This document shows positions 980 to 6,734 of a DNA stretch of 6,734 nt, one piece after another; position 1 is the stretch's first letter, and each line of letters begins with the position of its first letter. Location of the stretch: the UHGV virus genome UHGV-0318484, one strand, 5' to 3'. The stretch is from a virus. The position numbers were made by a program, and so were the translations under genes. A model generated the notes under the pieces. That model did no database searches. It saw only the letters and a program-made list of their open reading frames with translations, and was not told the origin of the DNA.

Positions 980-986
980 TTTTCCC

Positions 987-997
987 CAGCTCCACCA
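987..997 (+). other. Possible att core: CAGCTCCACCA (CCAGCTCCACCA from 986), identical to the 3' acceptor end of tmRNA (ssrA)
   Basis: A 12-nt identity to the recalled E. coli ssrA 3' terminus, about 185 bp upstream of a P4-type integrase start. P4-family integrases recombine at the 3' ends of tRNA/tmRNA genes. The sequence upstream of 986 is not ssrA, so this is a core copy only. Confidence 0.3.
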
Positions 998-1030
998 CTT
1001 GCTCTTCCGGATACGTCCGGAGAAATCCTA

Positions 1031-1066
1031 AAAGCCCGCATGGCACAAGCTCTGCGGGCTTTTTTG
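1031..1066 (+). terminator. Rho-independent terminator
   Basis: Stem GCCCGCA (1034-1040) pairs with TGCGGGC (1053-1059), extended by flanking A/T pairs, followed by TTTTTT (1060-1065). Lies downstream of the 692-979 gene. Confidence 0.6.
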
Positions 1067-1110
1067 TGTCTACCATTGTCCGAGGATATCCAGCTAAATC
1101 CAGTGATTAT

Positions 1111-1160
1111 TGGTATACGTTTAGGTATACGGTAGGATGTATACCTAAACGCGTATACCA
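1111..1160. promoter_or_regulatory. Imperfect 20-bp inverted repeat with four GTATAC motifs, overlapping the presumed int promoter; candidate Int arm-type sites or operator
   Basis: TGGTATACGTTTAGGTATAC (1111-1130) and GTATACCTAAACGCGTATACCA (1139-1160) are reverse complements apart from a 2-nt insertion. GTATAC occurs at 1113, 1125, 1139 and 1153. The repeat lies 20-70 bp upstream of the int start. Confidence 0.45.
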
Positions 1161-1181
1161 ATTCATGAAGGAGCGGCCACA

Positions 1182-2393
1182 GTGGCAAGAACGACACGCC
1201 CCCTGACCAACACAGAAGTTCTGCGCGCTAAAGCGTTAGAAAAGGATCTAACGTTACATGATGGCGATGGCCTTTTTCTGCTCGTTAAAACGAACGGTAA
1301 GAAGTTGTGGCGTTTCCGTTATCAACGTCCAGCAACAAAACAGCGGACAATGATGGGGCTTGGTGCTTTCCCCGCCCTTTCACTTGCTGATGCTCGAAGG
1401 TTAAGAGCGGATTACCTTGCTTTGTTGGCTAATGGTATAGACCCACAAGTTCAAGCTGAATTTATCGAAGAACAACAACAGATAGCTCTAGACAGTATTT
1501 TTTCGACTGTTGCGACCAACTGGTTCCAGATAAAAAGCAAAAGCGTTACCCCTGATTACGCTAAAGATATATGGCGCTCACTGGAAAAAGACGTATTCCC
1601 TGCCATCGGGGAGATTCCTGTCCAGCAAATAAAAGCCCGAACACTAGTTGAAGCCCTTGAGCCAATCAAAGCTCGTGGAGCACTCGAGACAGTGCGCCGA
1701 CTTGTACAGCGCATTAACGAGATAATGATTTATGCCGTAAACACTGGTCTGATTGATGCCAATCCAGCATCAGGTGTTGGGATGGCCTTTGAAAAGCCCA
1801 GAAAACAAAACATGCCGACGCTGAGGCCAGAAGAATTACCAAAGCTGATGCGTTCTTTGTTCATGTCAAATCTGTCTGTTCCGACTCGCTGTCTCATTGA
1901 ATGGCAGCTTCTGACTCTAGTGCGTCCTGCTGAAGCTTCCGGTGCTCGATGGGCAGAGATCGATCTCGATGCAAAGCTCTGGATGATTCCAGCCGAACGG
2001 ATGAAGGCCAAACGAGAGCACATAGTTCCTTTATCCACGCAGGCATTAGAAATTCTAGAAGTGATGCAACCTATTAGCGCACATCGTGAGCATGTTTTCC
2101 CAAGCAGAAATGACCCTAAACAACCAATGAATAGCCAGACTGCGAATGCCGCGCTTAAGCGCATTGGTTATGGTGGGAAGCTTGTTGCTCATGGATTACG
2201 TTCTATAGCAAGTACAGCACTAAATGAAGCTGGTTTTAATCCGGACGTAATTGAAGCGGCACTTGCTCACAGTGATAAAAATGAAGTTCGAAGAGCATAC
2301 AATCGTTCAACTTACCTTGAACAACGTATAGACTTGATGAATTGGTGGGGTGAATTTGTGCACAACCGCCACCGCCTCATGCAAGCGATTTAA
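1182..2393 (+). CDS. int: P4-family tyrosine integrase (site-specific recombinase), 403 aa, GTG start
   Basis: AAGGAG (1168-1173) 8 nt before GTG at 1182. The N-terminus (LTLHDGDGLFLLVKTNGKKLWRFRYQRP) matches the P4-type integrase N-terminal DNA-binding domain. The C-terminus carries the HGLRSIAST box and a tyrosine in RRAYNRSTYLEQR, consistent with tyrosine recombinase catalytic residues. Tandem stops TAATAA. Confidence 0.92.
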   Translation: MARTTRPLTNTEVLRAKALEKDLTLHDGDGLFLLVKTNGKKLWRFRYQRPATKQRTMMGLGAFPALSLADARRLRADYLALLANGIDPQVQAEFIEEQQQIALDSIFSTVATNWFQIKSKSVTPDYAKDIWRSLEKDVFPAIGEIPVQQIKARTLVEALEPIKARGALETVRRLVQRINEIMIYAVNTGLIDANPASGVGMAFEKPRKQNMPTLRPEELPKLMRSLFMSNLSVPTRCLIEWQLLTLVRPAEASGARWAEIDLDAKLWMIPAERMKAKREHIVPLSTQALEILEVMQPISAHREHVFPSRNDPKQPMNSQTANAALKRIGYGGKLVAHGLRSIASTALNEAGFNPDVIEAALAHSDKNEVRRAYNRSTYLEQRIDLMNWWGEFVHNRHRLMQAI

Positions 2394-2420
2394 TAAGATT
2401 GCACAGCAAAGGAGTCTTAA

Positions 2421-3779
2421 ATGCCAAATAACTACCATCAATACATCGAAGACGTTAGTGATGATATAAAGACATGTCTTGAAGGAATGGGATGCCAACC
2501 CATACTTTTTGTTGGATCGGGATTAACCAAGAGATATCTTTCTGGCCCAAACTGGGAAGAACTTCTTCAGCAACTTGCTAATGAATGTCCTAACATCGAT
2601 AAAAGATTTGCCTATTATAAACAGAAATACCCCGAGTTGATTGATATCGGCAGTGTATTTTCTGATTCTTATAACGAGTGGGCATGGGGTGATGGAGAGA
2701 AAGAATTTCCAGCAGAGTTATTTGATGCAGGCAATGAGCCAAGTATTTATTTTAAATACAAAGTATCTAGTATTTTCAACTCATTGTTACAAGAAAAAGA
2801 AATCGTAAACAACGGTGAAATTGAACTTCTGAGAAAGATTCACCCTCATTCAATCATCACAACAAATTACGACAAATTACTTGAATCGATATATCCTGAG
2901 TTTACCCCCATTATAGGCCAAAAAATCCTTTACGCTAATCACGGTAGCATTGGTGAAATACTTAAAATACATGGTTGCTGCTCCACTCCTGAAAGCATAA
3001 TAATAAACCGCGATGACTACGATGACTTCATAAAGAAGAAGAAATATTTAAGCGCAAAACTGCTTACTTTCTTTGCTGAACACCCTCTTCTATTTATAGG
3101 TTACAGCGCAGAAGACTCGAACATAAAAAACATACTATCTGATATTGATGAACTACTTTCAGAAAATGGAGATGTCATTCCAAATATATACATTTTAGAA
3201 TGGACGAGCAAACAAAATGAAAGTGAATACCCACGCCGTGAACGGCTGATTCAAGTATCTGCAAACAAAAGCATTAGAATAAAAAGTATAGTAGCAAATG
3301 ACTTCTCTTGGGTATTTTCAGCGTTTGGCGCGAACAGAGCACTTGATAACATAAATCCCAAATTATTGAGGGCACTTTTAGCTCGCACTTACGATCTCGT
3401 CAGAACTGATATACCTCGCAATCCTGTCCAAGTTGATTACCGAGTTTTATCAAGCATTAGCGAGTCAGAAGGTGAATTAGCGAAATTATATGGTATCGCC
3501 ACATCGTCAGATGGTATGGCATTTAATGCCAGTTATCCTTTTACTTTAACCACGCTAGGGCAATCACTTGGTTTCAAAGGCTGGCATGATGCGAACAAAC
3601 TATTAGAAGTAGTTAAAAACATCACGAACGTAGACATCAAGACATTCGATAACAAATACCACTATGCAATAATGAACGGTGATGAGATTCAGTCCCATAG
3701 ATATTCAAACTATCTTCGAGAACTCCTCGAAAAGGTTAGGGATGGAGAGGAGTTTGAGTTAGGAATAAAGGCTCCATAA
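2421..3779 (+). CDS. SIR2-like (sirtuin/DHS-like NAD-binding fold) protein, 452 aa, with an unassigned C-terminal domain of about 200 aa; candidate NAD+-depleting anti-phage effector in the P4 int-cos hotspot
   Basis: AAGGAG (2409-2414) 6 nt before ATG; only 27 nt after the int stop. Motifs typical of defence-associated SIR2 domains (as in ThsA, DSR, SIR2-HerA): PILFVGSGLTKRY (Gly-rich NAD loop, aa 27-39), ITTNYD (Asn at about aa 149), KIHGC (His at about aa 184), LLFIGYSAEDSNI (aa 223-235). Markedly AT-rich compared with neighbours. Terminator follows. Confidence 0.85.
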   Translation: MPNNYHQYIEDVSDDIKTCLEGMGCQPILFVGSGLTKRYLSGPNWEELLQQLANECPNIDKRFAYYKQKYPELIDIGSVFSDSYNEWAWGDGEKEFPAELFDAGNEPSIYFKYKVSSIFNSLLQEKEIVNNGEIELLRKIHPHSIITTNYDKLLESIYPEFTPIIGQKILYANHGSIGEILKIHGCCSTPESIIINRDDYDDFIKKKKYLSAKLLTFFAEHPLLFIGYSAEDSNIKNILSDIDELLSENGDVIPNIYILEWTSKQNESEYPRRERLIQVSANKSIRIKSIVANDFSWVFSAFGANRALDNINPKLLRALLARTYDLVRTDIPRNPVQVDYRVLSSISESEGELAKLYGIATSSDGMAFNASYPFTLTTLGQSLGFKGWHDANKLLEVVKNITNVDIKTFDNKYHYAIMNGDEIQSHRYSNYLRELLEKVRDGEEFELGIKAP

Positions 3780-3807
3780 TTATTCATATAGCCTTACTAC
3801 TTTTTAT

Positions 3808-3830
3808 GGCCGCTTTAATAGCGGCTTTTT
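3808..3830 (+). terminator. Rho-independent terminator downstream of the SIR2-like gene
   Basis: Stem GCCGCT (3809-3814) pairs with AGCGGC (3820-3825), loop TTAAT, followed by TTTTT (3826-3830). Confidence 0.55.
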
Positions 3831-3966
3831 CACAGCATTATTCATGCTTCTAGCACGATATGATGAACCGCAATAATCATAGCTAACAGGATTAATTTAA
3901 AGCATTACTCCTCGACTGAAGCGTGCTGTCATGCGAAAAAAATTTAAACTACCACGTTAGCGCGCA

Positions 3967-3985
3967 GTGCTTTCCCCGCCTCGCC
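3967..3985 (-). other. cos site: 19-nt P2/P4 cohesive-end sequence (GGCGAGGCGGGGAAAGCAC on the minus strand)
   Basis: Plus strand reads GTGCTTTCCCCGCCTCGCC, the exact reverse complement of the recalled P2/P4 cohesive end. Position between the accessory region/int and psu matches P4 genome organisation (left end cos-accessory-int; right end sid-delta-psu-cos). Confidence 0.8.
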
Positions 3986-4087
3986 CGCCCGCTTTGCGGG
4001 GCGGTTTTAATGCAGTTGCACTGACACGCTCAGACCGCGCCGGGAATGGTGCGGTCTGCAGAAAATGAGGCAGGAAAACGCATGCAA

Positions 4088-4119
4088 AGCCATGCACCTT
4101 ATCGATGCATGGCTTTTTT
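4088..4119. terminator. Hairpin with flanking T/A tracts between cos and psu; possible bidirectional terminator
   Basis: 9-bp stem AGCCATGCA (4088-4096) pairs with TGCATGGCT (4106-4114), followed by TTTTTT on the plus strand; on the minus strand it is followed by TTTGCATGCGTTTT. Lies just 3' of psu. Confidence 0.5.
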
Positions 4120-4149
4120 CAGTAAAAACGGGCGGATTTTCGGGGAATT

Positions 4150-4722
4150 TTACACAGACTGACGTGATGCCAGTTGCGCACTTTTACGCGAAAAAATCAT
4201 GTTCTGCGCAGGGGTGAATTTTTCACGGCTGTCATCCACCGAAGCCGCGTCAGGCCTGAATCCGATGGCCGTTAAAATGTCGCTATCCTGTGCGGAATAA
4301 TTAATTTTTTCACCCTTCGCAAGCCAGGACAGGAGGGCTTCACGCAGGGCATCTGTGGCACGCTGTATGGCACAGTTTCGGGCAATGGCCGTCAGCTCAC
4401 TGTAGCCCATCAGCTCCGGTGCCAGTGCCGCCGCCAGTGCTGTGCCGTGCTGCTGCATAAAATCATTCAGCCGGTCGCGGATGCTGATGTGCTGAACGGC
4501 TTCATGCGAACGAATATAACGACCGGCGGCCTGATTCACCTGCCATTTTCTGACTTCGATAATATTGCGTAATTCGTCCAAGCGACTGACGTTTCTGCCT
4601 TCTCCTGACAGAAGCCGCAGATATTCCTGTTCGGCCGCAGCCAGCTCATTTTTGCGTTGCAGCCATGCTGCTTTGTTATTCTGACAGGTGTCAAAGGCCT
4701 GCTGTAAGGCTGTGCTTTCCAT
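4150..4722 (-). CDS. psu: Psu, polarity suppression protein (P4 capsid decoration protein and Rho antagonist), 190 aa
   Basis: Length and sequence (MESTALQQAFDTCQNNKAAWLQRKNELAAAEQEYLRLL...SRQSV) match recalled P4 Psu; third gene of the sid-delta-psu late operon reading toward cos. Confidence 0.92.
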   Translation of the reverse strand: MESTALQQAFDTCQNNKAAWLQRKNELAAAEQEYLRLLSGEGRNVSRLDELRNIIEVRKWQVNQAAGRYIRSHEAVQHISIRDRLNDFMQQHGTALAAALAPELMGYSELTAIARNCAIQRATDALREALLSWLAKGEKINYSAQDSDILTAIGFRPDAASVDDSREKFTPAQNMIFSRKSAQLASRQSV

Positions 4723-4795
4723 CGTTATCTCTTTCTCATCATGCTGAAGAATAAAAATACGGTGTGCGGCGACGGCCGGTGTTAACCGGCAGCCC

Positions 4796-5296
4796 TCATT
4801 CCAGACGCAGCGAATATGATTGTGTTTTTAACCGTACTGGCGGCAGTTCCTGTTTTTCATGCAGGCGTTCTGCCAGTTCGTCCGGTGTGACCGGGCGGAC
4901 AATGAAGCGGTTGATGGTCTGAAGCGTTTTAAACACCAGACCACATCCCGGATCCGTGCACACATAAAAACGCTCGGTGACTTCCTGAGACAGACGCCGC
5001 GATGTTCTTGACAGTGCAAGGCCTTTACATCTCCGACAACAATATCCGGTAACAAGCATTCTTTTCGGGCGTTTCATACTACCGGAGGCTGACGTCAGTG
5101 AATCGCGGTATCTCTGTTTGCCTGAAATGTATTCCATTCCTGAATCTTTACAGTCAGAGAAAAAGCTTTCACTCGCTTCAAATGTCGCAGAGCAATAAAT
5201 ATTCCGGCACTGTGCAATCATTATCTTGGTGCCATCGTCCATGAAATGTGCGCGACGGGTGTGAGCAACATGTCCACACGACGGGCAGTAAATCAT
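4796..5296 (-). CDS. delta: Delta, late-gene transcriptional activator (tandem Ogr-like zinc-finger domains), 166 aa
   Basis: Two Ogr-like Cys motifs (CPSCGH...CRNIYC and CCRRC...CTDPGC); length matches P4 Delta. Its start overlaps the sid stop in ATGA (5293-5296). Confidence 0.92.
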   Translation of the reverse strand: MIYCPSCGHVAHTRRAHFMDDGTKIMIAQCRNIYCSATFEASESFFSDCKDSGMEYISGKQRYRDSLTSASGSMKRPKRMLVTGYCCRRCKGLALSRTSRRLSQEVTERFYVCTDPGCGLVFKTLQTINRFIVRPVTPDELAERLHEKQELPPVRLKTQSYSLRLE

Positions 5297-6027
5297 GACA
5301 GCAGTCCTCTGGCCTTAAGCTCTGCTCCCTGCTGGTCTATTTTGTCCTGCCACACCTTGCGCTGTGCCGGTGTGCCTGCCACCTCATAATCCATGTGCGG
5401 GAGTGTTGCCGCTGACAGTCCGGTCAGCCGGAGAACCGGCTCGCCGGTGAGGCTGATTTGCATCTGTTTTATTTTCTGTTCCAGCGATGATTTCACCTGC
5501 TGCATGACAGCCTTTTCCGGCGCGACGTAGCCCTGATGGCCGGTGGTGTTGGCGAGCGGATTTTCCTGTACCAGGATACTCAGATGCATTGCCCGGACAA
5601 GCGCCTCACAGGTTTCATTCAGGGCGTGTTCCAGCTCATGCTCTGCATACAGACTCAGAAGGTGATGATGTGCCTTCCGGTAGGCGGTGGCCGTGCTGTC
5701 ACACGCCCCTTTCAGGCGTTCACGTTCGAAATTCAGCACCACGGCCAGATTGTCATATTCCTGTACCAGCTCCCGGCGTGCCACGCGCTCAATGTGGCGC
5801 TGTTTCAGCTCGTCGCTCAGGACACCACCGGCTGCACGAAAGGCCGTGCGCCAGTCGTCAGCGTCGTTTCCGTCGGCCTGCGCCAGCGCATTTTTTTCCT
5901 GCTCTGCCCGTTCAATGGCCGTGATGGTCTCATCCATCAGGCGGGCGTTCTCAAGATGAGCGGCTCTGGCCTTTTCCAGTTGTGCCAGCGCGGGTTGCAG
6001 ATATTCAGGGATGGTGTTGTCAGACAT
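5293..6027 (-). CDS. sid: Sid, capsid size-determination (external scaffold) protein, 244 aa
   Basis: Sequence MSDNTIPEYLQPALAQLEKARAAHLENARLMDET... matches P4 Sid. Start placed at ATG 6027 (GAGGAG 7 nt upstream) rather than the in-frame GTG at 6045 used by the ORF track. Confidence 0.88.
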   Translation of the reverse strand: MSDNTIPEYLQPALAQLEKARAAHLENARLMDETITAIERAEQEKNALAQADGNDADDWRTAFRAAGGVLSDELKQRHIERVARRELVQEYDNLAVVLNFERERLKGACDSTATAYRKAHHHLLSLYAEHELEHALNETCEALVRAMHLSILVQENPLANTTGHQGYVAPEKAVMQQVKSSLEQKIKQMQISLTGEPVLRLTGLSAATLPHMDYEVAGTPAQRKVWQDKIDQQGAELKARGLLS

Positions 6028-6061
6028 TTTCCGGCTCCTCGTCACTTCAGGTTAAGAAAAT

Positions 6062-6117
6062 TGTGACGTACACCGGACAACAACACGACGCATTGCAGAT
6101 GTGCCAGCCCTGACACA
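6062..6117 (-). promoter_or_regulatory. Psid-type late promoter with two TGT-N12-ACA activator (Delta/Ogr) dyads
   Basis: TGTGCCAGCCCTGACACA (6100-6117) is centred about 81 nt upstream of the sid ATG, consistent with a -55 activator site. A second dyad, TGTGACGTACACCGGACA (6062-6079), is centred 38 bp closer. P2/P4 late promoters are defined by TGT-N12-ACA near -55. Confidence 0.6.
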
Positions 6118-6196
6118 GGAGACTCATCCTCAGACCGGCAAGCCAGGAAAAGGTCGCAGGAAAAACCGGCTTACTGTTTGTTTTTTTATATTTTAC

Positions 6197-6300
6197 TGTT
6201 CACCTCTGTTCACCATAAGAAAAAAGATAAGTAATACAGTAAGTTAAATGGTGAACAATCGCAGTAATGACTGTTCACCGTCTGTTCACCACTGTTCACC
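6197..6300. repeat. Iteron cluster: five direct and one inverted exact copy of TGTTCACC; candidate replication origin (P4 ori/crr-type alpha-binding sites)
   Basis: TGTTCACC at 6197, 6207, 6272, 6283 and 6293; the inverted copy GGTGAACA at 6250; degenerate copies (TGTTTACT, TGTTTGTT) flank. Spacing of 10-11 bp between neighbours. The octamer matches the recalled type I iteron bound by P4 alpha primase-helicase. Confidence 0.7.
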
Positions 6301-6404
6301 CGCTCATGGACTTTTTGTGCTGTTTACTACTGTTTGTTTTTATTAATTCGCCGGGAATGAATAAGAAGAAACGATTTGTATTTCACTATAAAAATTACGA
6401 ATTG

Positions 6405-6434
6405 CTTTAAGTGGCTTTAAATGACTTTAAGTGG
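6405..6434 (+). repeat. Three tandem 10-bp units (CTTTAAGTGG / CTTTAAATGA / CTTTAAGTGG); possible regulator-binding array upstream of the rightward late promoter
   Basis: Direct reading of the sequence; helical-turn periodicity; ends 26 bp before the TGT-N12-ACA at 6460. Confidence 0.3.
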
Positions 6435-6459
6435 GAATGAACAAAAAACACACAGTCAT

Positions 6460-6477
6460 TGTAAGGCGGCCGGAACA
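6460..6477 (+). promoter_or_regulatory. TGT-N12-ACA dyad; candidate activator site of a PLL-type late promoter driving the AlpA/Vis-like gene
   Basis: TGTAAGGCGGCCGGAACA; a -55 site here would put the transcript start near 6523, about 57 nt before the ATG at 6580. Divergent from Psid, as in P4. Confidence 0.4.
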
Positions 6478-6579
6478 AATCCCCCCTGTTGCGTCTGCCA
6501 AAAAGATTCACAAAATAAAGCGCTACCCGAAGCCGGACGGACTTATCCGGTGCTGTATGGACATTAACGAGGTAGCCCG

Positions 6580-6734
6580 ATGCAAGCTGTTTTTTCTTCC
6601 CCGTCTCCCTCCCCTGTGACGCCACTGATGCCGCTGCCGGACATCACGCAGGAGCGTTTTTTACGTCTGCCGGAAGTGATGCACCTGTGCGGCCTGTCAC
6701 GTTCGACCATCTATGAACTCATCCGTAAGGGGGA
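6580..6734 (+). CDS. AlpA-family HTH protein (Vis/excisionase-like regulator), 5' partial; runs off the window end
   Basis: GAGG (6569-6572) 7 nt before ATG at 6580. Translation MQAVFSSPSPSPVTPLMPLPDITQERFLRLPEVMHLCGLSRSTIYELIRKG contains the AlpA-type helix-turn-helix signature. In P4 the vis gene occupies this position. Confidence 0.8.
   Translation, partial: MQAVFSSPSPSPVTPLMPLPDITQERFLRLPEVMHLCGLSRSTIYELIRKG

Follow-up and report, generated by a model that had tools for sequence, protein, structure and literature searches.

The stretch of the UHGV virus genome UHGV-0318484 analyzed here, 6,734 nucleotides (nt) long and called the window below, is a P4-like satellite in which an integrase gene (int), a SIR2-family open reading frame (ORF) of 452 amino acids (aa) and a cos site are followed by psu, delta and sid. 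The P4-type tyrosine integrase occupies 1182-2393 on the plus strand (Pfam Phage_integrase, 1e-32; NCBIfam PRK09692, 2e-181). The cohesive-end sequence cos, at 3967-3985 on the minus strand, is an exact match to the P2/P4 19-mer GGCGAGGCGGGGAAAGCAC, which was matched in none of 200 shuffles. Between these two landmarks the SIR2 ORF is the only gene. It runs from an ATG at 2421 to the end of its stop codon at 3779 on the plus strand, beginning 27 nt past the int stop and ending 187 nt ahead of cos, and its product corresponds to RefSeq WP_001133507, annotated as "SIR2 family protein" in 7 E. coli genomes. A first-pass annotation of this DNA, made from the letters alone, had proposed a single SIR2-like gene as the sole int-cos cargo, and the coordinates bear this out. 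Homology to E. coli P4-like elements with other cargo breaks off on the left side at 2351 or 2490 and is regained on the right side at 3960/3961, 6 bases before cos. These breaks, together with a guanine-cytosine (GC) content of 34-40%, mark a variable cargo region at 2394-3960 (strand not applicable) in the P4 int-cos hotspot. Other E. coli elements with the same flanks carry a PARIS-like AAA+DUF4435 pair in one case and a hypothetical gene in another. Of 5426 complete E. coli genomes, 2339 have the flanks and 7 the SIR2 gene, which is always in the same context.

The ORF is a real gene under strong purifying selection, with a ratio of non-synonymous to synonymous substitution (dN/dS) of ~0.03 in comparison with homologues of 91-95% identity. 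A ribosome-binding site, AAGGAG, lies 6 nt before the ATG (2409-2414, plus strand), and 29 nt past the stop codon there is a terminator-like hairpin, GGCCGCU-UUAAU-AGCGGCU followed by UUUUU (3808-3832, plus strand; -15.1 kcal/mol, z=-3.2). The GC content of the ORF is 37%, against 47-54% in the flanks, which fits the expectation for imported cargo. A consensus scan, which does not prove that a promoter is absent, found no sigma-70-like promoter in 2200-2420 on the plus strand. No other ORF of at least 20 aa lies wholly inside the gap from the SIR2 stop to the cos-proximal DNA (3780-3920), and a small hidden partner ORF between the stop and cos was rejected on this basis. Two traces of gene loss were seen in related elements. 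The SIR2 copy of E. coli MEI4BO-21 (NZ_CM149565.1, 1180502-1183060) is split by an insertion of the IS5-like element ISKpn26. In several E. coli P4-like elements with different cargo, a 57-aa ORF remains 27 nt after int. In the example from E. coli LSN03-016011/A (locus L090, 1936-2109), it corresponds to window bases 2421-2490 joined to 3674-3769, so that ~23 residues from the start of a related SIR2 gene run in frame into ~30 from its end. This ORF is the footprint of an internal deletion, and the newer cargo stands alongside it on the opposite strand.

Residues 1-305 (2421-3335, plus strand) are predicted to form a Rossmann-like SIR2 catalytic domain with no zinc module, as judged by AlphaFold, Foldseek and the cysteine count. 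The SIR2_2 profile of Pfam (PF13289) matched residues 144-266 significantly (E=4.3e-27; 95.4 bits against a cut-off of 24.5). Conservation was read from an alignment of 46 homologues with identity down to 52%. G32, G34, N149 and H184 are invariant, the loop residues F30 and R38 likewise, and S33 is nearly so. The two glycines belong to a Gly-rich loop, FVGSGLTKR (residues 30-38; 2508-2534, plus strand), that would bind nicotinamide adenine dinucleotide (NAD+). Asn149, in a TTNYD motif (codon 2865-2867, plus strand), and His184, in a KIHG motif (codon 2970-2972, plus strand), are the putative catalytic residues. In alignments with DSR2 and ThsA, N149 falls in their ITTNYD motif. The DSR2 counterpart of H184 is H171, which is replaced in the "DSR2 H171A" entries of the PDB. 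The Gly-rich loop and the Asn and His motifs noted in the first-pass annotation therefore stand. A model computed with the 46 homologues as input has a mean predicted local distance difference test score (pLDDT) of 77, mostly 80-95 over residues 1-305, and its best Foldseek matches are ThsA (1e-11), KomC and DSR2. The best PADLOC models are all defence SIR2s (PDC-S25, 2e-84; ThsA, 1e-20; then LmuA, Dsr1 and Dsr2), and sequence matches in the PDB comprise ThsA, DSR2 and KomC and no deacylase sirtuins. The canonical sirtuin family PF02146 gave no match at E<=0.1, and the protein has only 5 cysteines, with no Cys4 motif and no CxxC pairs. A CobB-like sirtuin deacylase was rejected for want of a PF02146 match and a Cys4 zinc module. 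By sequence and predicted structure, the product is a defence-type SIR2, closest to ThsA, KomC and DSR2.

We compared the protein with each of the SIR2 defence systems to which it might belong. PDC-S25, an untested single-gene phage defence candidate in PADLOC, is the best model match by far (E=2e-84). Profile positions 10-358 of 517 align to protein residues 12-376 of 452, so that the model does not cover the winged-helix-like C-terminus (377-452). This partial coverage suggests that the PDC-S25 seed proteins probably have a different, longer C-terminus. ThsA resembles the protein in size (~475 aa), in its N-terminal SIR2 domain, in the same catalytic Asn and His, and as the best structural match (Foldseek, 1e-11). 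However, ThsA has a SLOG domain, whereas the C-terminus of the window protein lacks SLOG and has a different predicted fold, and the ThsA models in PADLOC match only residues 117-251. There is no ThsB/TIR gene near the SIR2 gene in the window or in 79 homologous loci. Membership of Thoeris was rejected, given the lack of a SLOG or Macro domain and of a ThsB/TIR neighbor. DSR1 and DSR2 are likewise single-gene systems with an N-terminal SIR2 domain, in which catalytic H171 aligns with H184, but these proteins are ~1000-1200 aa long and have a large repeat sensor domain. At 452 aa the protein is indeed too short for this class, as the first-pass annotation held: the NCBIfam Dsr2 model gives 14.6 bits where its cut-off is 1400, on which membership was rejected, and the PADLOC Dsr1 and Dsr2 models match only the SIR2 core. 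The SIR2 subunits of Kongming (KomC) and SIR2-HerA (Nezha) have the same defence NADase SIR2 fold, but they are short, SIR2-only proteins that need KomA/KomB or HerA, and the window encodes none of these. SIR2-HerA (Nezha), SIR2-pAgo (SPARSA) and Kongming were rejected, since HerA, a short pAgo/APAZ and KomA/KomB are all missing. A further parallel comes from the CRISPR-supervised "sole-Sir2" systems, stand-alone proteins of ~440 aa that convert NAD+ to ADP-ribose in vitro, a homologue of which protects against T2 and T4 (bioRxiv 10.1101/2024.12.27.630466). Compared by description only, sole-Sir2 has the opposite domain order, with a C-terminal Sir2 domain and an N-terminal part of unknown nature. 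By analogy, it would offer proof of principle only for a stand-alone Sir2 NADase of ~440 aa.

The search for a conserved partner gene covered the window, the remainder of the element and the homologues. Besides the SIR2 gene the window holds only int, psu, delta and sid, and its ORF list, Pfam and PADLOC models revealed no TIR, HerA, Argonaute or STAND genes, in line with the earlier reading that TIR, HerA and Argonaute are absent. The remainder of the element, as seen in one complete genome, consists of backbone genes only (a helix-turn-helix regulator, an icd-like gene, two small ORFs, DUF5375 and the alpha primase-helicase); the obligate partner elsewhere in the element that would have told against a single-protein system was thus not found there. 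For the wider search, ORFs of at least 70 aa within 5 kb were clustered at the 79 homologous loci (41-95% identity). No neighbor family occurs in more than 9 of them. The commonest are IS3 transposases (9 loci), P4 integrases (7) and the type I restriction subunit HsdR (6), all at variable distance and orientation. No same-strand ORF of at least 100 aa lies within 100 nt upstream at 59 of the 79 loci, or downstream at 65. On these three lines a conserved partner gene was rejected and, as far as sequence can tell, the SIR2 protein is self-contained.

The homologues occupy mobile or defence-rich contexts. Full-length homologues (41-95% identity) occur in Gamma- and Betaproteobacteria, Bacillota, Cyanobacteria, Planctomycetes, Bacteroidota and methanogenic archaea. 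P4-like elements carry them in Ewingella, Pantoea and Symbiopectobacterium, and the tight int-SIR2 junction (29-33 nt) is kept in the P4-like elements of other genera. The Cohnella homologue lies within an integrase island, and others are on conjugative plasmids of Vibrio and Photobacterium. In Pseudomonas aeruginosa, a homologue of 73% identity stands beside a filamentous (Zot/DUF2523) prophage. An ORF of 256 aa (locus L003, 8387-9157) follows it by 34 nt; neither Pfam nor PADLOC matches it, and the other 79 loci contain no relative of it. In four Bacillaceae loci (L038, 69-5960, from Bacillus seohaeanensis; L037; L043; L048), the homologue follows a DarT1-associated NADAR antitoxin gene, with a gap of ~40 nt that widens to ~930 nt in L037. 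Upstream of NADAR come genes for DarT, for a YgjP-like metallopeptidase and for the R subunit of a type I restriction system, so that an NAD-consuming toxin stands next to a putative NADase.

The C-terminal part of the protein is a module of its own. Residues 296-452 are conserved to the same degree as the catalytic domain in the 46 sequences. A central segment, residues 306-364 (3336-3512, plus strand), contains the invariant motif LRALLARTYxLVRxDIP, in which L316, R317, A321, R322, Y324, R328, D330, I331 and P332 do not vary. Its structure is predicted with low confidence (pLDDT <50 at residues 308-366 in both AlphaFold models), and it is possibly an oligomerization or switch element. The following small domain, residues 365-445 (3513-3755, plus strand), is predicted to be a winged helix of the MerR/excisionase type. 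Its predicted fold resembles the DNA-binding domains of MerR, excisionase, ParA/Par and small terminase proteins, with modest scores. Other identities for the C-terminal 157 residues were rejected as not significant, namely Toxin_YhaV, the best Pfam match (E=0.18), and a SWIB domain (PDB profile matches, E=0.16-1.4). A search of a viral structure library with the C-terminal model returned nothing below E=0.07, with weak antirepressor/KilA-like rows only, and neither Pfam nor fold comparison found a SLOG or Macro ligand-binding fold in the domain. When a profile of the module was run against 1.84 billion representative proteins, 217 sequences matched. All the full-length ones are proteins of ~440-600 aa that have the module as their C-terminus, and SIR2_2 is present in each of the four matches of odd length that were scanned. 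A domain swapped onto other effectors was accordingly rejected, none being found among the 217 matches. This indicates a module peculiar to this SIR2 family, as opposed to a sensor domain shuffled between proteins. The PDC-S25 model, PHROG 2695 and phage-encoded relatives match the protein only to about residue 340-376, which suggests that sister SIR2 families probably carry other C-termini. Of the earlier suggestion that the C-terminal half is a sensor or regulator, the distinct, conserved module holds, while the sensor role is still putative.

The shape of this module raises the possibility that the protein is a targeted NAD-dependent modifier, an ADP-ribosyltransferase or deacylase directed by the winged-helix-like domain to DNA or to a DNA-bound or packaging protein, in defence or in the interplay between satellite and helper. 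SIR2 folds include both ADP-ribosyltransferases and NADases. The likeness of the C-terminal domain to those of MerR, excisionase, ParA/Par and small terminase would suit such targeting, as would the four Bacillaceae homologues placed directly after a DarT1-NADAR DNA-ADP-ribosylation module. We nevertheless regard a targeted modifier as quite unlikely.

The cargo itself was already known. The psu-int hotspot was described by Rousset et al. 2022 (PMC9122126), who listed SIR2 among its uncharacterized cargo domains. Their Table S1A includes WP_001133507, the accession of the window ORF product, as a single "SIR2_2" cargo. The same gene was also cloned. Plasmid pFR88 is listed in Table S2B as "SIR2, P4, 1 gene, E. 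coli M605" (PMC9122126). Its protein is identical to that of the window at 399 of 399 compared residues, the compared part of the cloned DNA equals window DNA from base 2300, and nothing in the gene differs. The window differs from the source element of pFR88 in being permuted or shortened, without the alpha primase region. The same cos sequence is present in the cos-proximal DNA of the clones. A 2024 Domainator survey (PMC11754643) recovered the same cluster, Rousset system #9 by its numbering, at 12 loci with one coding sequence, described as "Sir2-like (likely a NADase)". Single-gene SIR2 cargo is thus already known from two published surveys and one defence-candidate database. Literature searches turned up no later functional study of the WP_001133507 protein or of PDC-S25, and no biochemical data on the protein. 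What is new here is the lack of a conserved partner across phyla, the family-exclusive C-terminal module, which may be a winged helix, and a checkable weakness of the published test.

That test forms part of a larger screen (PMC9122126), in which P4 systems faced eight coliphages in an MG1655 host and P2-like phages in an E. coli C host. Seven of the 19 cargoes tested from the psu-int hotspot protected against phages of the eight-phage panel, whereas in E. coli C protection from P2-like phages was given by TIR-NLR alone among the P4 systems tested. Validated systems are collected in Table S2A, and the "additional tested systems" in Table S2B (PMC9122126). The listing of pFR88 in Table S2B and not in Table S2A means that no protection was reported for the SIR2 gene, and the phage protection on cloning foreseen by the first-pass annotation does not appear in the record for this same gene with 121 nt of upstream DNA. 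By the authors' own statement, the small phage panel underestimates the defensive fraction (PMC9122126). In addition, the published negative may have a specific, checkable weakness in the expression of the clone. The pFR88 insert starts 121 nt upstream of the ATG, inside int. The 27-nt junction with int, the lack of a sigma-70-like site and an insert that starts within int together suggest that the gene may be transcribed with int, in which case, we infer, pFR88 may have made little protein.

Two further explanations draw on this result. The gene may have no anti-phage role at all. It would then be cargo of a selfish or neutral kind, such as a toxin-like or addiction module, or would serve the satellite by other means. 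A published test without protection would be expected in that case, and so would the interrupted and remnant copies in some elements. Strong purifying selection, full-length conservation across phyla with invariant catalytic residues, and the repeated occurrence of the family in defence hotspots and islands speak against it, and no antitoxin-like small gene is adjacent; we consider it unlikely. Alternatively, the protein could be an orphan effector, inert alone or in K-12, whose required signal or partner, for instance from a TIR-type or other producer of nucleotide signals, comes from another locus of the host. ThsA, KomC, SIR2-HerA and SIR2-pAgo are all activated by second messengers or partners, the closest structural matches are among such activated defence SIR2s, and the gene cloned alone had no protection reported in MG1655. 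Yet the C-terminal domain is not a SLOG/Macro ligand-binding fold, no recurrent partner family stands near the 79 homologues of many phyla, and only backbone genes make up the remainder of the P4-like element. Single-gene satellite cargo moving between genera would, moreover, rarely meet a matching unlinked partner. We judge an orphan effector to be decidedly improbable.

On balance we favor, with a little better than even confidence, a stand-alone, auto-inhibited SIR2 NADase that the P4-like satellite carries as exchangeable cargo and that serves abortive-infection-type defence, its C-terminal module acting as regulator or sensor. The gene and its location, the SIR2 fold and motifs, purifying selection, the want of a conserved partner and the confinement of the C-terminal module to this family are what the analysis shows, while we infer the NADase activity, the auto-inhibition, the trigger and the defence phenotype. 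In this proposal, residues 1-305 would fold into an NAD+-binding SIR2 domain bearing the Asn/His pair with which ThsA, DSR2 and KomC hydrolyze NAD+ to ADP-ribose and nicotinamide. The enzyme would stay inactive until the family-specific C-terminal module, comprising the LRALLARTY..DIP segment and the small winged-helix-like domain, detected an infection cue. Activation would probably proceed through a change of oligomeric state, comparable to the filaments of ThsA and KomC or the tetramers of DSR2, and would deplete NAD+ and abort the infection. Clonal hosts and the resident satellite would thereby be protected from phages other than the helper. The earlier idea of a self-contained NAD+-depletion system survives in the absence of a conserved partner at 79 loci, while NAD depletion and abortive infection are putative.

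Several observations weigh against the stand-alone NADase. In the published screen (PMC9122126) pFR88 appears only in Table S2B, outside the seven validated P4 systems, and, by the refuting condition set in the first-pass annotation, the absence of reported protection is one mild strike against an abortive-infection, NAD-depletion function. The literature contains no NADase assay for this SIR2 family. An IS5-family element disrupts one of the seven copies in E. coli, and other P4-like elements retain only the 57-aa deletion remnant, which together indicate a gene that is easily lost. The C-terminal module is a putative sensor. Its small domain is only mildly basic (median net charge +1.5), and this mild basicity, with the modest fold scores, leaves DNA binding by the domain as conjecture and nothing more.

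A bolder version holds that the protein is a single-chain immune sensor-effector, whose winged-helix module would recognize a phage nucleic-acid structure or a packaging or replication protein and switch on NADase activity or targeted ADP-ribosylation; the 2022 negative would then be false, owing to a promoter-less clone and an eight-phage panel. We hold this to be rather doubtful. If true, it would provide a new sensing module for SIR2 immunity and make the PDC-S25-like proteins a validated, widespread single-gene system. Single-gene SIR2s of this type are found across many bacterial phyla, in some archaea, on conjugative plasmids and in satellites. An active protein would represent a compact NAD-depleting immune factor with a sensor module not described before, and would make clear that false negatives can occur among P4 cargo scored as inactive. 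For now, the value of these results is mainly as a pointer to a better-designed re-test.

The remaining genes of the window are typical of the element. On the minus strand, psu, the polarity suppression and capsid decoration gene, lies at 4150-4722 (Pfam Psu, 8e-89), delta, an Ogr/Delta zinc-finger activator, at 4796-5296 (Pfam Ogr_Delta, 7e-22; PHROG 603), and sid, for capsid size determination, at 5293-6045 (PHROG 6165, 4.5e-116; RefSeq "capsid size-determining scaffold Sid"). The int of this P4-like element is ssrA-specific in related genomes and adjoins ssrA in strain 2018-10-1CC. Comparison with four genomes revealed the window to be circularly permuted relative to integrated P4-like prophages, with the junction at ~986-990. 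Bases 986-6734 run from attL/int through sid, and bases 1-990 correspond to the DNA directly after base 6734. At the junction, DNA downstream of the icd-like gene is joined to the last ~12 nt of ssrA plus int, and ~3.5 kb with DUF5375 and the alpha primase-helicase are missing. The window may derive from a 6.7-kb circular or tandem contig, from an alpha-deleted mini-element or from an assembly artefact.

Rfam placed a P4/P1-type immunity RNA region at 171-447 on the plus strand, made up of C4 antisense RNA at 360-447 (76 bits against a cut-off of 45), isrK at 184-261 (67.5 against 50) and a c4 a1/b1 target at 171-223 (50 against 46). The long ORFs at 64-699 and 452-979 in this region are probably not genes. 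A weak match to the small RNA IsrM at 933-1065 on the plus strand, just upstream of int and across the att junction, is probably not meaningful (32.7 bits against a cut-off of 376, E=2e-6). Finally, in E. coli E47 (locus L001, 1-12337) the satellite directly adjoins a P2-like prophage, in which the gene beside the integrase is annotated as an anti-phage dCTP deaminase. A helper-type phage and a satellite thus stand in tandem in this genome, each with defence cargo of its own.

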